IMG/VR virus record: IMGVR_UViG_2548876955_000006
Location: 1 to 9,179 of that record
Source of the DNA: a virus
Lineage: Duplodnaviria > Heunggongvirae > Uroviricota > Caudoviricetes
DNA: 9,179 nt
Reading direction: 5' to 3' (one strand)
This document shows, one piece after another, positions 2,743 to 9,096 of this stretch. Positions within the stretch are counted from its first letter, which is position 1; the number at the start of each line of letters is the position of its first letter. The position numbers and the translations under genes are program-made. The notes under the pieces are model-generated. The model ran no database searches, had not been told where the DNA came from, and saw only the letters and a list, made by a program, of their open reading frames with translations.

Positions 2743-4565
<1,823 letters not shown>

Positions 4566-4635
4566 TGGAGCACCTGTGTTGTTCTGAGGTGAGCATATCA
4601 CCTCTGTTCAGGTGGCCAAATTCAGTGTGCCACTA

Positions 4636-5241: not shown

Positions 5242-5378
5242 CCATCAATCACCAGATGCTTCGTGCAGCACAAAACAAAGCAGTAATAGCCAGATTTATT
5301 GGTGATTCCAAAATGTGGCTTGAAGCAAATAAAGCGATGAAATCAGCTATCAACCTTCCGTGGTATCGCAGGAAATGA
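5226..5378 (+). CDS. kil: Kil-like protein (host cell-division inhibitor)
   Basis: 50-aa MRNEITINHQMLRAAQNKAVIARFIGDSKMWLEANKAMKSAINLPWYRRK, absent from the ORF track because it is short. Its start overlaps the cIII 3' end, as kil does in lambda. The IARFIGD-KM segment resembles lambda Kil from memory. Confidence 0.5.
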   Translation: MRNEITINHQMLRAAQNKAVIARFIGDSKMWLEANKAMKSAINLPWYRRK

Positions 5379-5453
5379 GTTTTACAGATAACTGGTCAGA
5401 CGAAGAATTCATTCGTCAGATGAAAGAATTAATCGGTAACGAAGGAGATATTC

Positions 5454-5624
5454 ATGTCACTTGCAACCACCGTGAAGGAGAGCAAGTTACAGAGACGCAT
5501 GTACACGCAGCAGGCGTTAATGTATCGCCAGAAGGGAGATCGTGAAGGTGTTCGCGTCTTTTTAAATGCGGCAAAGACCGAAGTATTAAATCAGCGTTAT
5601 TTCCTTGGTCCATGTCCATTCTGA
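5454..5624 (+). CDS. Hypothetical small protein (56 aa) at the position lambda gam occupies
   Basis: MSLATTVKESKLQRRMYTQQALMYRQKGDREGVRVFLNAAKTEVLNQRYFLGPCPF. Strong Shine-Dalgarno AAGGAG 6 nt before the ATG. Its stop precedes the SSAP gene by 8 nt. No family recognised. Confidence 0.45.
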   Translation: MSLATTVKESKLQRRMYTQQALMYRQKGDREGVRVFLNAAKTEVLNQRYFLGPCPF

Positions 5625-5632
5625 GGTGAATT

Positions 5633-6340
5633 ATGGATTTGAATAAATTCGATGAGCCATTCAGCCCTGAAGATATCGAATGGCGAATACAGCAAAGCGG
5701 TAAAACACGCGATGGCAAGGTGTGGGCTATGGTGCTGGCTTATGTCACGAACAGGGCAATCATGAAACGCCTGGACGATGTTTGCGGCAAAGCAGGATGG
5801 CGCAATGAATACCGCGATATTCCCAACAACGGAGGCGTTGAATGCGGCATATCAATCAGGATTGATTCCGAATGGGTAACCAAATGGGATGCTGCTGAAA
5901 ACACGCAGGTAGAAGCCGTCAAAGGTGGTCGTTCCGGCGCAATGAAGCGCGCTGCCGTTCAGTGGGGAATCGGTCGGTATCTGTATAACCTTGAGGAAGG
6001 TTTCGCACAAACATCTCTCGATAAAAAGCAGGGGTGGCACAGGGCAAAACTGAAGGATGGAACAGGATTTTACTGGCTCCCTCCATCGCTGCCGGGATGG
6101 GCAATCCCAGCATCAGATAACAAACCATCACCAGAAAATACCAACCAGAAATCTCCATCGGTTGACTGCGAACAAATCCTGAAAGACTTCAGCGATTATG
6201 CATCAACAGAAACTGACAAGAAAAAACTCATCGAGCGTTATCAGCGTGACTGGCAATTAATGGCTGGCAACGAGGAGGCACAGGCTAAATGCGTTCAGGT
6301 AATGAACATCAGAGTTAACGAACTAAAACAGGCGGCATAA
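5633..6340 (+). CDS. Rad52-like single-strand annealing protein (Sak-type recombinase)
   Basis: 235 aa with GAGGTG Shine-Dalgarno. Motifs typical of the phage Rad52/Sak family (...RDGKVWAMVLAYV...GGVECGISIRI...GAMKRAAVQWGIGRYLY). Occupies the position of lambda bet. Confidence 0.7.
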   Translation: MDLNKFDEPFSPEDIEWRIQQSGKTRDGKVWAMVLAYVTNRAIMKRLDDVCGKAGWRNEYRDIPNNGGVECGISIRIDSEWVTKWDAAENTQVEAVKGGRSGAMKRAAVQWGIGRYLYNLEEGFAQTSLDKKQGWHRAKLKDGTGFYWLPPSLPGWAIPASDNKPSPENTNQKSPSVDCEQILKDFSDYASTETDKKKLIERYQRDWQLMAGNEEAQAKCVQVMNIRVNELKQAA

Positions 6341-6808
6341 ATGTCTCACTTGGACGGAATTATTAAAAGATTCGAGTCCAGCTACAAAGTTAATGAAACA
6401 ACAGGTTGCTGGGAGTCTACCTATTCAAAAAACAAAGGAGGATACACAAAATTTGTAGCCTTTGGCGTAACAATGCTTTCTCATCGGGTTGCTTTTGAGC
6501 TTTATCACTCCCCCATTCCATCTGGGAAGATGGTTTGCCACAAATGCGATAACCCATGCTGCGTTAATCCTGAACATCTCTTTTTAGGTAGCGCGCAAGA
6601 AAACATGGACGACAAGATAGCAAAAGGAAGGCATCGTGGAGCCAAGAAAGGTCATGCTCATCATGGTGCAAAATTAACAGAGTGGCAGGTTATAGAAATT
6701 AGGAAAAGACTCTCTGAAAAAGAGAGTCAGTACAAGATAGCAAAAGACATGGGTGTATCTCAATCAATTATAAGCAACATAAAAACTGGCAAGAGGTGGA
6801 GCAAATGA
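6341..6808 (+). CDS. HNH endonuclease (HNH_3-like) with C-terminal HTH
   Basis: 155 aa with the HNH signature ...[45 protein letters not shown]... The ATG directly follows the SSAP stop, and its own stop overlaps the ssb ATG. Confidence 0.85.
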
Positions 6809-7311
6809 GTTCTCGCGGGATAAATAAGGTGATTATCCTTGGTCGGGTAGGACAAGACCCGGAAGTTCGATACTCACCATCAGGAACAGCGTTCGCTAAC
6901 CTGACAATAGCCACGTCAGAACAATGGCGAGATAAAAATACTGGCGAGCAAAAGGAATTGACTGAATGGCATCGTGTTGCTGTATCCGGGAAACTGGCTG
7001 AGGTCGTGGGGCAGTATGTGAAAAAAGGTGATCAGATTTATTTCGAGGGAATGCTGAGAACCAGAAAGTGGAAAGACCAGTCAGGGCAAGACCGTTACAC
7101 AACCGAGGTTCATGTCGGAATTAATGGCGTGATGCAAATGCTTGGCGGCATTGGCGACAGCAAACAACAAGCAGCCAGCAGGCAATCACAGAAGCCACAG
7201 CAGCAATCATCACCAGCACAACACAACGAACCTCCGATGGATTTTGACGACGATATACCCTTTGCACCAGTAACTCTCCCCTTCCCTCGTCACGCTATTC
7301 ACGCAATTTAA
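6805..7311 (+). CDS. ssb: Single-stranded DNA-binding protein
   Basis: 168 aa [44 protein letters not shown]...[15 protein letters not shown]...[18 protein letters not shown]..., with the acidic C-terminal tail [11 protein letters not shown]. Closely resembles E. coli SSB as recalled. Confidence 0.9.
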
Positions 7312-7324
7312 TCAGGAGAAAATC

Positions 7325-7618
7325 ATGCCAGCGCCTCTGTATGGTGCGGATGACCCGCGCCGCTGTTCCGGCAATTCCGTATCGGAGGTGCTGGATAAAT
7401 TCAGAAAAAACTACGATCGGATAATGTCGCTACCGCAGGAAACGAAAGAGGAAAAGGAATTTCGCCATTGTATATGGCTTGCAGAGAAAGAAGAACGCGA
7501 GCGAATTTACCAGACATCAATCCGACCATTCCGCAAAGCCACATATACCCACTTCCCTGAAATTGACCCGCGCCTGCGTAATTATCGATCACGCTATGGC
7601 GCTATCAGTAATGACTGA
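7325..7618 (+). CDS. Hypothetical protein (97 aa)
   Basis: ORF with Shine-Dalgarno CAGGAGAAA 6 nt upstream of the ATG. No recognised domain. Part of the co-directional early-left operon. Confidence 0.5.
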
Positions 7619-7628
7619 GGAATTTACC

Positions 7629-7793
7629 ATGAGAGGACTTGCATACAATCCCGGCATTCTTCCGGCAGAAATGATTATTCGCCAACGCGTAAAGCCAATG
7701 CCATCGAGAGAGGAATTGCTTAAGAGAAATTCTTCTCCGTCAGTGAATCAAAACAAATATCTGAATGCGATGTGGCGGAGTGGGAAGAAATGA
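7629..7793 (+). CDS. Hypothetical small protein (54 aa)
   Basis: [60 protein letters not shown] Shine-Dalgarno 7 nt upstream. An alternative ATG at 7611 has no Shine-Dalgarno. Its stop overlaps the next ATG (ATGA). Confidence 0.45.
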
Positions 7794-8227
7794 AACGAAT
7801 GACACTAATTGAGATGGATGGATTTCTGAAAGGTAAATGCATCCCATGTGATTTAAAGGTTAACGAAACAAATGCTGAATATCTGGTACGCAAATTTGCT
7901 GAAGCGGAGGCCAAGTGCGCGGCGCTGGCGGCGGAGAATGCGGAGCTGAAGTCTGTGCACCCTCAACCATTCGGAGCAGAGATGATGAAGGCTCTTGATG
8001 AGTATGAGAAGCATCAGGATGAAGTGCCAGAGACTGGAATGCTCAATGCATTTTTCATCTTGCGCGACAGCATCCGTGTTGAAACCCCAGCCACCGACTC
8101 TTTCCTGTCTGAAGTGCGGGCGCAGGGGGTTGAGATGATGCGCGAACACCCATCAATCAAACTTTGCTCTTTGACGCACATATGTGATGAGTTAGCCGCC
8201 CAGCTTCGCAAAGGAGGCAACCAGTGA
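7790..8227 (+). CDS. Hypothetical protein (145 aa), possibly Ead/Ea22-like
   Basis: [54 protein letters not shown]... with a coiled-coil-like Ala/Glu-rich segment. The Ea22-like assignment is a weak recollection, not a verified match. Confidence 0.5.
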
Positions 8228-8307
8228 CTGGACATGCAGCAATCCTCGACATGTGCTGTGGCAGTCGCATGTTCTGGTTAGATAAGAATGACGAACGGGC
8301 GAGATAA
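8224..8307 (+). pseudogene. Possible truncated gene remnant (27 codons) with a SAM-methyltransferase motif-I-like sequence
   Basis: GTG-initiated [27 protein letters not shown] then stop. ILDMCCGS resembles motif I (hhDhxxGxG-like) of methyltransferases. Downstream frames are closed by multiple stops. Confidence 0.3.
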
Positions 8308-8357
8308 GCGATCGGTTAAGTGCTATAGTAATGCGCTTTTGTATTTATGGAGTGAAT

Positions 8358-9056
8358 ATGAAAAATATCCTACTGGCATCATTGTTAGTGGCATCGCCGG
8401 GTGCATTTGCAGCCAGCTTTGACTGCCAAAAGGCTTCGACAGCAATCGAACATAAAATCTGCGATAACGAACGTCTGTCAAAATTAGACGAACAGCTTAG
8501 CTCTGCCTATTCTAGTGCCCTCAAAGGAAACCCAGAGAACGCAGACACCCTAAAAATGGTTCAACGTCAGTGGGTAAATATGCGTGGAAAACTCACTGAT
8601 AATAAGGCTCTGGAGCTGGCTTATCTTATCCAAATTAATGGCCTCAAAGGTTTGGGGAGTTCAGTCAGCGTAACAGCGGCCAATGACATACCCACGTCGG
8701 CGCAGAAACATTCTGAAGAGCAGGAAGAAACAAGTAAGGCAGAAGCTAAGTCGGTCAAGAACGGCAATGAGCTAACCTTAGAGTCATTCCGAGCTAAATA
8801 TGTAGAAGTAGATGGTGAGTATTACAGCACGACATCCATTCCTAGAGGCAGTTCGTTCTTGTTCACTTGCGCCAGTCGTATTGCTGATGACCAAGTGAAT
8901 ATTTGGAAGAAACAGGCAGCCAAAGAGGGCAAAATCGACTTATTCTTTGAGGTTGAGAATCACTTACACACGGCTATGTTGAACGCCAATTTTCAGAAGT
9001 TGAATTCAGACCCTGCCAAAAGAGGTATTTGTAATCTGATTAACGCAGTGCCGTAA
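8358..9056 (+). CDS. Secreted DUF1311 / LprI-like (lysozyme-inhibitor family N-terminal domain) protein
   Basis: 232 aa from ATG 8358 with GGAG Shine-Dalgarno. Signal peptide MKNILLASLLVASPGAFA|AS. DUF1311-type pattern FDCQKASTAIEHKICDNERLSKLDEQLSSAYSSALKG...LKMVQRQWVNMR. C-terminal half of unknown function. Followed by a strong terminator. Confidence 0.7.
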   Translation: MKNILLASLLVASPGAFAASFDCQKASTAIEHKICDNERLSKLDEQLSSAYSSALKGNPENADTLKMVQRQWVNMRGKLTDNKALELAYLIQINGLKGLGSSVSVTAANDIPTSAQKHSEEQEETSKAEAKSVKNGNELTLESFRAKYVEVDGEYYSTTSIPRGSSFLFTCASRIADDQVNIWKKQAAKEGKIDLFFEVENHLHTAMLNANFQKLNSDPAKRGICNLINAVP

Positions 9057-9065
9057 GTAAATTTA

Positions 9066-9096
9066 GGGCCACAGTTGTGGCCTTAAATATTTTTTC
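9066..9096 (+). terminator. Intrinsic terminator after the DUF1311 gene
   Basis: GGGCCAC-agtt-GTGGCC hairpin followed by TTAAATATTTTTT. Confidence 0.7.

Follow-up and report, generated by a model that had tools for sequence, protein, structure and literature searches.

The interval 7325-8227 of the window (the whole 9,179-nt stretch of Caudoviricetes DNA analysed here, from IMG/VR record IMGVR_UViG_2548876955_000006) is, in our judgement, probably the distal end of a P22/HK75-type recombination (Rec) locus, in which the first gene would encode the RecBCD modifier Abc2, the third a counter-defence protein, and the second a small DUF2737 protein acting in the same conflict. It carries three co-directional ORFs on the + strand, ORF A (7325-7618, 97 aa), ORF B (7629-7793, 54 aa) and ORF C (7790-8227, 145 aa), which follow ssb just as the initial annotation described. 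That annotation named no family for any of them and called all three uncharacterised, a description which does not suit ORF A, a PF11043 protein and homologue of the structurally solved Abc2, or ORF C, a homologue of P22 EaE and HK446 Oad2, and which stands for the function of ORF B, although this gene too has a family name, DUF2737 (PF10930). The view that these are three novel early-left proteins of no recognisable family is hardly tenable: while ORF C does fall outside Pfam and NCBIfam and ORF B has no assigned function, it is already refuted for ORF A, ORFs B and C have the relatives just named, and all three genes are annotated in RefSeq. The broader guess that this early-left stretch is a home of host-takeover or anti-defence functions was right in kind, as Abc2 and the Oad2 family illustrate. 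The locus is a new allele within known kinds, and no new system.

The sequence record indicates that the three ORFs are more than chance ORFs, since ORFs A and B have curated Pfam matches, omega is low (ORF A with P22 abc2, 0.10; ORF B with P22 orf56, 0.09; ORF C N-terminal module with HK446 gp27, 0.10), the exact ORF C protein is recorded on 291 contigs, and these three CDSs are annotated by RefSeq in E. coli DNA of identical sequence. Synonymous changes far outnumber non-synonymous ones in all three genes (in the N-terminal module for ORF C), which denotes purifying selection. The good Shine-Dalgarno sequences initially ascribed to all three genes are found for ORF A (AGGAG at 7314-7318, 6 nt 5' of the ATG) and for ORF B (GAGGA at 7617-7621, overlapping the abc2 stop and 7 nt 5' of the ATG, the gap between abc2 and DUF2737 being 10 nt), but not for ORF C, whose sole Shine-Dalgarno-like element is a weaker GGAG (7777-7780). 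For this reason, ORF C is probably translated by coupling to DUF2737 through the ATGA stop/start overlap, which can be read directly at 7790-7793 (+ strand), as had been reported. Within 7325-8227, an Rfam scan found no family and a signal scan found no promoter or terminator above background, which fits read-through expression from pL.

Two features of the surrounding DNA bear on whether these genes still matter to their host genome. Upstream, an IS3-family element (~3397-4601), for which a repeat search found no terminal inverted repeats, interrupts the pL operon, and expression of the interval is here predicted only. Downstream, and on the same strand, lies a 27-codon remnant of a DNA methyltransferase gene (8224-8304; phrog_11564 and phrog_954, residues 1-26 only), at a position where an intact gene for a class I SAM methyltransferase is present in other E. 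coli prophages; a deletion in the ea region has its boundary at this remnant. Both features, together with the many pseudogenes of related prophages, would suit a decaying prophage whose three genes are silent cargo with no current function in this genome. We regard this as very unlikely, because all three ORFs are intact and have start signals, their alleles are identical on hundreds of contigs, omega is about 0.1, and N-antiterminated transcription can cross insertions.

By homology, ORF A is Abc2, the P22-type anti-RecBCD protein. It matches PF11043 at positions 1-97 of 97 (E = 6e-64; 212.7 bits against a cut-off of 25) and phrog_656, 'abc2 anti-RecBCD' (E = 3e-55), and its RefSeq entry, WP_001111303.1, is a 'phage anti-RecBCD protein'. 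When compared with P22 Abc2 (PDB 8b1t_A, E = 2e-58), 89 of 97 residues (~92%) are identical, and only two of the eight substitutions, L32R and A65S, fall within residues 3-66, which are modelled in 8B1T (62 of 64 conserved) and make up its RecC-contacting part; Pro68, the PpiB site, is also kept (PMC9836394). P22 Abc2 is among the best-studied genes of the region, with genetics, biochemistry and cryo-EM structures (8B1T and 8B1U) to its credit (PMC9836394), and a match to a phage protein characterised to this degree goes, in spirit, against the idea of an uncharacterised cluster. Abc2 of P22 binds RecC and leaves the helicase activity intact (PMC9836394). From the ~92% identity, we infer that ORF A would likewise bind RecC and alter the Chi response of RecBCD.

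The position of ORF A agrees with this assignment, as it directly follows the genes of a Rad52-type annealing protein (5633-6340, Pfam Rad52_Rad22) and of a single-strand binding protein (ssb, 6808-7311, Pfam SSB), as in the phage recombination modules of P22, HK75 and HK446. The two proteins are 99% identical to HK75 gp32 and gp31, whose genes abut in HK75, without the HNH endonuclease gene that is inserted between them here (6341-6808, Pfam HNH_3); all three genes are on the + strand. Given this context, 5633-7311 would be the recombination module served by Abc2. In the mechanism we propose, the interval would be read from pL as one message, and Abc2 would keep the RecBCD helicase running while stopping the normal Chi response. 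This would spare phage DNA ends and pass them on to the annealing protein and SSB of the adjoining upstream genes, a step of the proposal that leans on published experiments with a homologue ~92% identical to ORF A.

Profile matches identify ORF B as DUF2737 (PF10930: E = 1e-29, 102.7 bits against a cut-off of 25, positions 1-52 of 53; phrog_1117: E = 3e-36), the family to which P22 orf56 (74% identical), HK97 gp38 and HK446 gp28 belong. The core motif of the family, which ends in (P/G)SVNxN(K/R)xL, is present, but ORF B has a Ser (RNSSPS) at Phe36, a residue conserved in at least 90% of DUF2737 members; the Ser36 allele also occurs in 5 viral contigs and in RefSeq genomes. The AF2 model comprises three short helices and is of low confidence (pLDDT 65, pTM 0.22), and a PDB sequence search with ORF B gave no matches. 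A literature search for 'DUF2737' retrieved no paper, the one mention of the name being in a gene table in the supplement of PMC12373910, and HK446 gp28 is not mentioned in the preprint on OLD inhibition discussed below (bioRxiv 10.64898/2026.07.10.737580). Long DUF2737 'fusions' (112-207 aa) in the representative library were considered as Rosetta-stone evidence and rejected, as they are mis-called ORFs or frameshifts, the mis-called ones being read-through from an alternative frame of the abc2 3' end.

Gene order provides clues as to which neighbour DUF2737 might work with. The succession abc2, DUF2737, EaE-like gene recurs in P22 (erf, abc1, abc2, orf56, eaE), HK75 and HK446, and in seven of seven GTDB loci, down to 29% identity for Abc2 and 57% for DUF2737. 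Abc2 is directly upstream of DUF2737 in all 80 IMG/VR loci, even where it has diverged to 60-75% identity. In addition, Klebsiella phage phiKp_30 carries an Abc2-like protein (34% identical) upstream of a DUF2737 protein (48%). One might thus suppose that DUF2737 is a cofactor of Abc2, stabilising this protein, which is unstable when produced by itself, or contacting RecBCD or PpiB, rather than a partner of the EaE-like protein. This supposition would account for the pairing in the 80 IMG/VR, seven GTDB and Klebsiella loci and for the conserved 10-nt junction, and it is in line with the fact that purification of P22 Abc2 alone was not achieved (PMC9836394). However, P22 Abc2 and RecBCD form a defined complex, with or without PpiB, in which orf56 is absent (PMC9836394). 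Moreover, abc2 and DUF2737 are separated by an inserted gene in HK446 and in a Pseudocitrobacter prophage, both of which keep the DUF2737/EaE overlap, and a RecT-type phage devoid of Abc2 retains both DUF2737 and the EaE-like gene, again with the 4-nt overlap. We therefore hold the cofactor explanation to be improbable.

The junction of ORFs B and C is widely conserved, as the EaE N-terminal module starts at the last DUF2737 codon in 75 of the 80 IMG/VR loci, and the 4-nt overlap is also present between HK446 gp28 and gp27 and between HK75 gp29 and gp28. The LRKGGNQ-type tail of ORF C moreover ends many DUF2737 alleles. DUF2737-like proteins in which only the C-terminal half is conserved occur without an abc2 or EaE-like neighbour, both in virulent Jerseyvirus phages and on a further contig, which counts against the reading we propose. 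In the preferred reading, DUF2737 would be a small, basic and mostly unstructured protein, translationally coupled to ORF C and involved in the same conflict, where the EaE-like N-terminal module would be its most likely partner.

Alignments place ORF C in the mosaic EaE family, as a full-length homologue of HK446 Oad2 (gp27), to which it is 44% identical (E = 3e-35). This kinship extends beyond the conserved N-terminal module, since residues 43-145 taken separately are still 37% identical to gp27 (E = 1e-12). Identity is 69% with the 'EaE' of HF4s, 57% with HK629 gp35, 41% with HK75 gp28, and 35% over 82 aa with P22 EaE (E = 3e-10), and the phrog matches are phrog_614, 492, 368 and 583. A Pfam search with ORF C returned no match, NCBIfam and PADLOC searches with the three proteins returned noise only and no defence-related profile, and a PDB sequence search with ORF C gave chance-level matches (E of 0.27 or worse). 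The AF2 model of ORF C is all-helical and of low confidence (pLDDT 64, pTM 0.30); structural homology, which the initial annotation had suggested as a check, yielded nothing below E = 1 when this model was run through Foldseek against BFVD and PDB.

The protein can be divided into four parts, all encoded on the + strand. The N-terminal module (aa 1-42; 7790-7915) shows 81-100% identity in 75 of 80 loci, against 30-45% for the remainder of the protein, and is kept at 69% in Pseudocitrobacter. The core, as defined by alignment (aa 43-113; 7916-8128), lacks a coiled-coil insert carried by many relatives and ends with the family motif ETPATDxFLxEVRAQG (aa 98-113; 8081-8128), which is common to ORF C, P22 EaE, Oad2, HK75 gp28 and the distant RecT-type phage. 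Next comes a hypervariable C-terminal cassette (22 residues, ~aa 114-135; 8129-8194), for which a comparison of 82 close relatives revealed 16 unrelated types between the EVRAQ and LRKG anchors. The type found in the window is the commonest (20 of the 82) and differs from those of Oad2 and HK75 gp28. Finally, a conserved 10-residue tail and the stop codon (8195-8227) include LRKGGNQ (aa 139-145), which ends 59 of the 82 relatives; the corresponding DNA also encodes the Shine-Dalgarno sequence of the next gene (AAGGAGG, 8211-8217) and a GTGA overlap with it (8224-8227). Such variability, with 16 types, is the pattern expected of an arms-race interface, and the cassette is a candidate specificity determinant. 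The mosaicism of the cassette could also come from recombination at conserved gene-junction sequences, and not from selection for new targets; this, as well as the low confidence of the structure models and the empty fold searches, speaks against our proposal.

The functional part of the proposal for ORF C comes from HK446 gp27, which was named Oad2 (OLD anti-defence 2) in a July 2026 preprint (bioRxiv 10.64898/2026.07.10.737580). P2 OLD is an ABC-ATPase/TOPRIM nuclease; Oad2 binds it directly, inhibits it and blocks its activation, and is sufficient alone to rescue OLD toxicity in a recB-deleted host (bioRxiv 10.64898/2026.07.10.737580). The HK75 homologue, 54% identical to Oad2, is reported to be inactive against OLD (bioRxiv 10.64898/2026.07.10.737580). 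As we found HK446 gp27 and HK75 gp28 to be 54% identical, exactly the figure of the preprint, the identity of Oad2 is cross-checked. Since a homologue this close is inactive, activity against P2 OLD is not transferable to ORF C, which is 44% identical to Oad2 and has a different cassette. The EaE family contains only one member with an assigned function, from a single unreviewed preprint.

OLD fires once RecBCD is disabled. According to our proposal, ORF C would be a counter-defence protein of the Oad2 kind, directed against a guard that would otherwise be set off by the RecBCD-manipulating genes of the phage itself. The provoking genes would be that of Gp33, whose OLD-trigger activity is published (bioRxiv 10.64898/2026.07.10.737580), and perhaps that of Abc2, for which no triggering of OLD is reported. 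A Gp33 homologue (56 aa; 5375-5545, + strand) is indeed encoded in the window, and is 98% identical to HK75 Gp33 and 95% to HK446 Gp33. The swappable C-terminal cassette would probably set which guard variant is bound.

A different possibility is that ORF C and DUF2737 assist recombination, replication or the lysis-lysogeny decision as accessory factors, and lie beside abc2 through block inheritance of the early-left region. Both genes are located in the Rec locus by the annealing protein, SSB and Abc2, and P22 Abc1 and Arf, also encoded there, promote recombination in ways not yet explained; the failure of the HK75 homologue against OLD and the absence of any matched defence-related profile point in the same direction. 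Yet the one family member tested binds a defence nuclease directly, and hypervariability of a cassette between conserved anchors is unusual for a core recombination factor. Ea22 and EaD are linked to lysogenisation, but a kinship of ORF C with these proteins was rejected, as it shows no similarity to HK629 gp33 (Ea22-like) or to P22 EaD. On balance, an accessory role seems rather unlikely, and we retain counter-defence as the preferred reading for ORF C.

A bolder extension of the counter-defence reading, which we put forward as doubtful, is that DUF2737 and the EaE-like N-terminal module form a fixed two-protein platform for swapped C-terminal cassettes (at least 16), each of which would neutralise a different OLD-family or RecBCD-guard nuclease. 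ORF C would then act against a defence other than P2 OLD, and in natural hosts it would need DUF2737 as a partner or be enhanced by it; for the activity of Oad2 itself, DUF2737 is not required, as Oad2 alone is sufficient. If true, the platform would be a modular, cassette-swapping counter-defence system located beside guard-provoking genes. More generally, the locus places this prophage within current work on Rec loci that combine RecBCD manipulators, triggers for guards such as OLD, and fast-changing guard inhibitors. It also raises two questions: which defence the common ORF C allele neutralises, given its distinct cassette, and what DUF2737 does, being under strong purifying selection and nearly always located between abc2 and an EaE-like gene.

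Compared with known systems, ORF A shares with P22 Abc2 its length, ~92% identity, Pro68 and a position downstream of an annealing protein and SSB. Its eight substitutions lie mostly in the disordered C-terminus, and its partners, like those in HK75, are an annealing protein of the Rad52 type and a phage-encoded SSB, whereas those of P22 Abc2 are Erf, Abc1 and Arf. Lambda Gam and T7 Gp5.9, which are known triggers of OLD and retron guards, serve the same purpose as Abc2, namely neutralising RecBCD so that phage DNA and phage recombination profit, but have no kinship with it in sequence or mechanism: by mimicking DNA, they block both the DNA-binding site of RecBCD and every activity of the enzyme, while Abc2 binds RecC and spares the helicase. 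ORF B resembles P22 orf56, HK97 gp38 and HK446 gp28 in size, in its slot between abc2 and an EaE-like gene, and in the 10-nt upstream gap and downstream overlap, and differs from them by the Ser at the near-invariant Phe36. With P22 EaE, HK620 hkaH and HK97 gp37, ORF C has in common the core motif, the tail and a gene position after orf56, although identity to P22 EaE is low and, in that protein, the E. coli-type N-terminal module is missing and the C-terminal cassette is longer. Finally, ORF C and HK446 Oad2 share the N-terminal module, the ETPATDxFLxEVRAQ motif, the LRKGGNQ tail, the slot that follows DUF2737 and overlaps it by 4 nt, and an operon that includes the OLD-trigger gene gp33, but ORF C lacks the 21-residue coiled-coil insert of Oad2, its core has diverged, and its cassette is unrelated.

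Three co-directional ORFs follow ssb on the + strand, at 7325-7618 (ORF A, 97 aa), 7629-7793 (ORF B, 54 aa) and 7790-8227 (ORF C, 145 aa), and the sequence bears out these boundaries as well as the ATGA overlap between ORFs B and C at 7790-7793. The good Shine-Dalgarno sequences ascribed to all three by the initial annotation are present for ORF A (AGGAG, 7314-7318) and ORF B (GAGGA, 7617-7621), but the sole candidate for ORF C is a weaker GGAG nine bases ahead of its start, and translation of ORF C probably relies on coupling. Purifying selection acts on all three ORFs, with an omega of 0.10 for ORF A against P22 abc2, of 0.09 for ORF B against P22 orf56 (with saturated synonymous divergence in both cases), and of 0.10 when the first 38 codons of ORF C are compared with HK446 gp27. 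Scans of the three-ORF interval detected no Rfam family and no promoter or terminator above background. We have very little doubt about the identities of the three products, namely Abc2, a DUF2737 protein and a member of the EaE/Oad2 family, respectively.

The cluster had been labelled uncharacterised, which fails for ORF A. The Pfam profile PF11043 ('Bacteriophage P22 anti-RecBCD protein 2') covers this protein over its full length (E 6e-64), and phrog_656 and the cryo-EM chain of P22 Abc2 (8B1T_A, E 2e-58) match it too; eight of the 97 residues differ from that chain. Abc2, helical and extended in shape, binds RecC at the domains that recognise Chi (the 'inactivated helicase' domains), leaving the helicase uninhibited, and host PpiB co-purifies with it, engaging Pro68 (Wilkinson et al. 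2022, PMC9836394). Pro68 is kept in ORF A, and L32R and A65S are the only substitutions within modelled residues 3-66. Given the family and structure matches, the conserved Pro68 and the few changes in the modelled part, ORF A represents a characterised host-takeover function: by homology to the published experiments, it would reprogram RecBCD via RecC, in favour of the annealing protein and SSB of the phage.

For ORF B, the label holds insofar as no function is assigned, but the protein belongs to a known family, DUF2737 (PF10930, E 1e-29; phrog_1117), and is 74% identical to P22 orf56. The family is very narrow, with only 100 clusters at 50% identity among 1.84 billion representatives and only seven loci, all from Enterobacteriaceae, in 185,579 species-representative genomes. 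In the literature searched, it is mentioned in one supplementary gene table only. Long DUF2737 'fusion' proteins were rejected as mis-called reading frames. The conserved part of the family is the C-terminal half, and the AlphaFold model of ORF B consists of three short helices at low confidence, as would be expected of a peptide folding on a partner. Codon 36 (7734-7736) encodes Ser, versus Phe in at least 90% of the family (RNSSPS versus RNSFPS); RefSeq genomes and five viral contigs share this allele, which therefore circulates and is no private mutation.

ORF C matches no Pfam family, and several PHROGs of unknown function match it piecewise. It is an EaE/Oad2-family protein, 44% identical over its full length (E 3e-35) to HK446 gp27 and still 37% identical (E 1e-12) once the shared N-terminal module (aa 1-42) is removed. 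It is also 69% identical to the 'EaE' of HF4s, 57% to HK629 gp35 and, over the core, 35% to P22 EaE. A kinship with Ea22/EaD proteins was tested and led nowhere. No lead came from PDB sequence searches with ORFs B and C or from NCBIfam and PADLOC searches of the three proteins, and structure prediction for ORFs B and C and fold searches with the ORF C model were uninformative. More than 7,700 relatives of ORF C were found, all in enterobacterial prophages, and an alignment displays a fixed anatomy: from N to C terminus, the N-terminal module, an optional coiled-coil insert (missing from ORF C), a core which closes with ETPATDxFLxEVRAQG, a hypervariable cassette and a conserved tail. At the variable position, 82 close relatives with the same core carry 16 unrelated cassettes, and the cassette is likely the specificity determinant. 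In E. coli A25, a prophage that is otherwise near-identical encodes an ORF C version of 115 aa (comparison DNA L003, 13837-14184), with the same N-terminal module and C-terminal cassette and an in-frame internal deletion of part of the core, which shows that the core is dispensable or rapidly changing.

The order abc2, orf56, eaE of P22 is also that of the window, including the 10-nt gap after abc2. Among 80 IMG/VR loci recovered via DUF2737, abc2 lies directly upstream of the DUF2737 gene in all 80 (in eleven of them, Abc2 is only 60-82% identical, with DUF2737 at 96-98%), and the N-terminal module of ORF C begins at the DUF2737 stop in 75, the rest of the downstream protein ranging from 30 to 100% in identity. 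All seven GTDB loci show the same order, the most divergent being a Pseudocitrobacter prophage (Abc2 29%, DUF2737 57%, N-terminal module 69% identity), and in a Klebsiella P22-like phage an Abc2-like gene (34%) precedes DUF2737 (48%). DUF2737 could be a cofactor of Abc2, but the RecBCD-Abc2 structures were obtained without it, and inserted genes separate abc2 from DUF2737 (HK446 gp29; Pseudocitrobacter). Such insertions do not separate DUF2737 from the EaE-like gene, except for a 64-aa ORF, identified in the raw sequence, in an Intestinirhabdus prophage and an HNH endonuclease gene in HK629; moreover, a RecT-type phage without Abc2 retains DUF2737 overlapping an EaE-like gene. Judging from synteny only, the EaE-like gene thus seems to be a closer companion of DUF2737 than abc2 is, the counter-examples being a lone DUF2737-like protein in virulent Jerseyvirus phages and in one other contig type. 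Conserved linkers lie at the junctions (7610-7631 and 8205-8227 in the window; also in comparison DNAs L087, L088 and L004). The junction between abc2 and the next gene, TAATGACTGAGGAATTTACnATGA, is kept even when that gene differs (HK446 gp29), and the tail ...LRKGGNQ, encoded by Shine-Dalgarno, spacer and GTGA, is found at the end of EaE-like genes and of many DUF2737 alleles alike. Such shared stretches, all of them short, are probably recombination joints driving mosaicism.

A function in this family has been reported for HK446 gp27, named Oad2 (bioRxiv 10.64898/2026.07.10.737580, 10 July 2026). According to this preprint, P2 OLD, an ABC-ATPase/TOPRIM abortive-infection tRNase, is activated once RecBCD is disabled; Gp33 of HK75 or of HK446, possibly a new RecBCD manipulator, is a sufficient trigger; Oad2 binds directly to OLD and prevents its activation; and the HK75 homologue, 54% identical, gives no protection. 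HK446 gp27, which adjoins the DUF2737 gene gp28 on its 3' side with a 4-nt overlap, is confirmed as Oad2, as its identity to HK75 gp28 equals the preprint figure. The window carries a Gp33 homologue (5375-5545, +; 56 aa), which overlaps the kil stop and is 98% identical to Gp33 of HK75 and 95% to that of HK446. As the annealing protein and SSB are also 99% and Kil 98% identical to their HK75 counterparts, this is an HK75-type recombination locus, the type shown experimentally to set off OLD. Its Oad2 slot holds a different allele, and ORF C departs from the Oad2 prototype by a differing core, the lack of the insert and a different cassette.

On its + strand, the window carries the pL (early-left) operon of a lambdoid E. 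coli prophage, in the order cI-type repressor, N, IS3-family insertion, cIII-like gene and kil, 56-aa gene, Rad52-type annealing protein, HNH endonuclease and ssb. The HNH gene (6341-6808, +; C-terminal HTH) looks like a homing-endonuclease insertion, as the annealing-protein and ssb genes abut directly in HK75. Just after N, a 114-aa ORF on the - strand (3059-3403) combines a coiled-coil N-terminus with two CxxC pairs of zinc-ribbon-like appearance, and has no PADLOC match. Downstream of ORF C, a 27-codon remnant (8224-8304, +) is left of the N-terminal end of a DNA methyltransferase gene; the GTG start, preceded by a strong AAGGAGG, overlaps the ORF C stop (GTGA). As an intact class I SAM methyltransferase occupies this place in other E. 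coli prophages, the rest of the ea region was lost by deletion. Next comes a protein of the LprI family (8331-9056, +), lysozyme-inhibitor-like, which has a signal peptide and its own terminator-like hairpin at 9061-9088; in close relatives, this moron separates the early-left genes from xis, int and the chromosomal attachment site. The IS3-family element (about 3397-4601, -; orfA 4263-4601, orfB 3397-4236; annotated ISEc52 in relatives) is antisense within the operon, between N and the cIII-like and kil genes, and terminal inverted repeats were not detected in a repeat search. The element may lower the expression of all downstream genes, and ORFs A-C could accordingly be silent cargo of a decaying prophage, but they are intact and their alleles widespread. 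Two complete E. coli genomes are 100% identical to the window across 7600-8330, and RefSeq labels the same three CDSs there 'phage anti-RecBCD protein', 'DUF2737 family protein' and 'hypothetical protein'.

We propose that ORF C would act as a counter-defence protein of the Oad2 kind, protecting the phage against a guard nuclease which detects RecBCD manipulation by the phage's own operon, in which Gp33 is the reported trigger; more speculatively, DUF2737 might partner the N-terminal module of ORF C. We give roughly even chances to ORF C being an anti-defence protein of any sort, and consider it unlikely to inhibit P2 OLD itself. Alternatively, ORFs B and C could serve recombination or lysogeny in an accessory role, instead of anti-defence. 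Compared with known systems, ORFs A-C are the classical abc2, orf56, eaE segment of P22-like and HK97/HK75-like phages. Of its products, Abc2 was known before, DUF2737 is an established family with no assigned function, and ORF C adds a new allele to a family for which a first function has been reported only recently. Interest is modest overall, and what remains of it concerns DUF2737 and the specificity of the cassettes in Oad2-like proteins.
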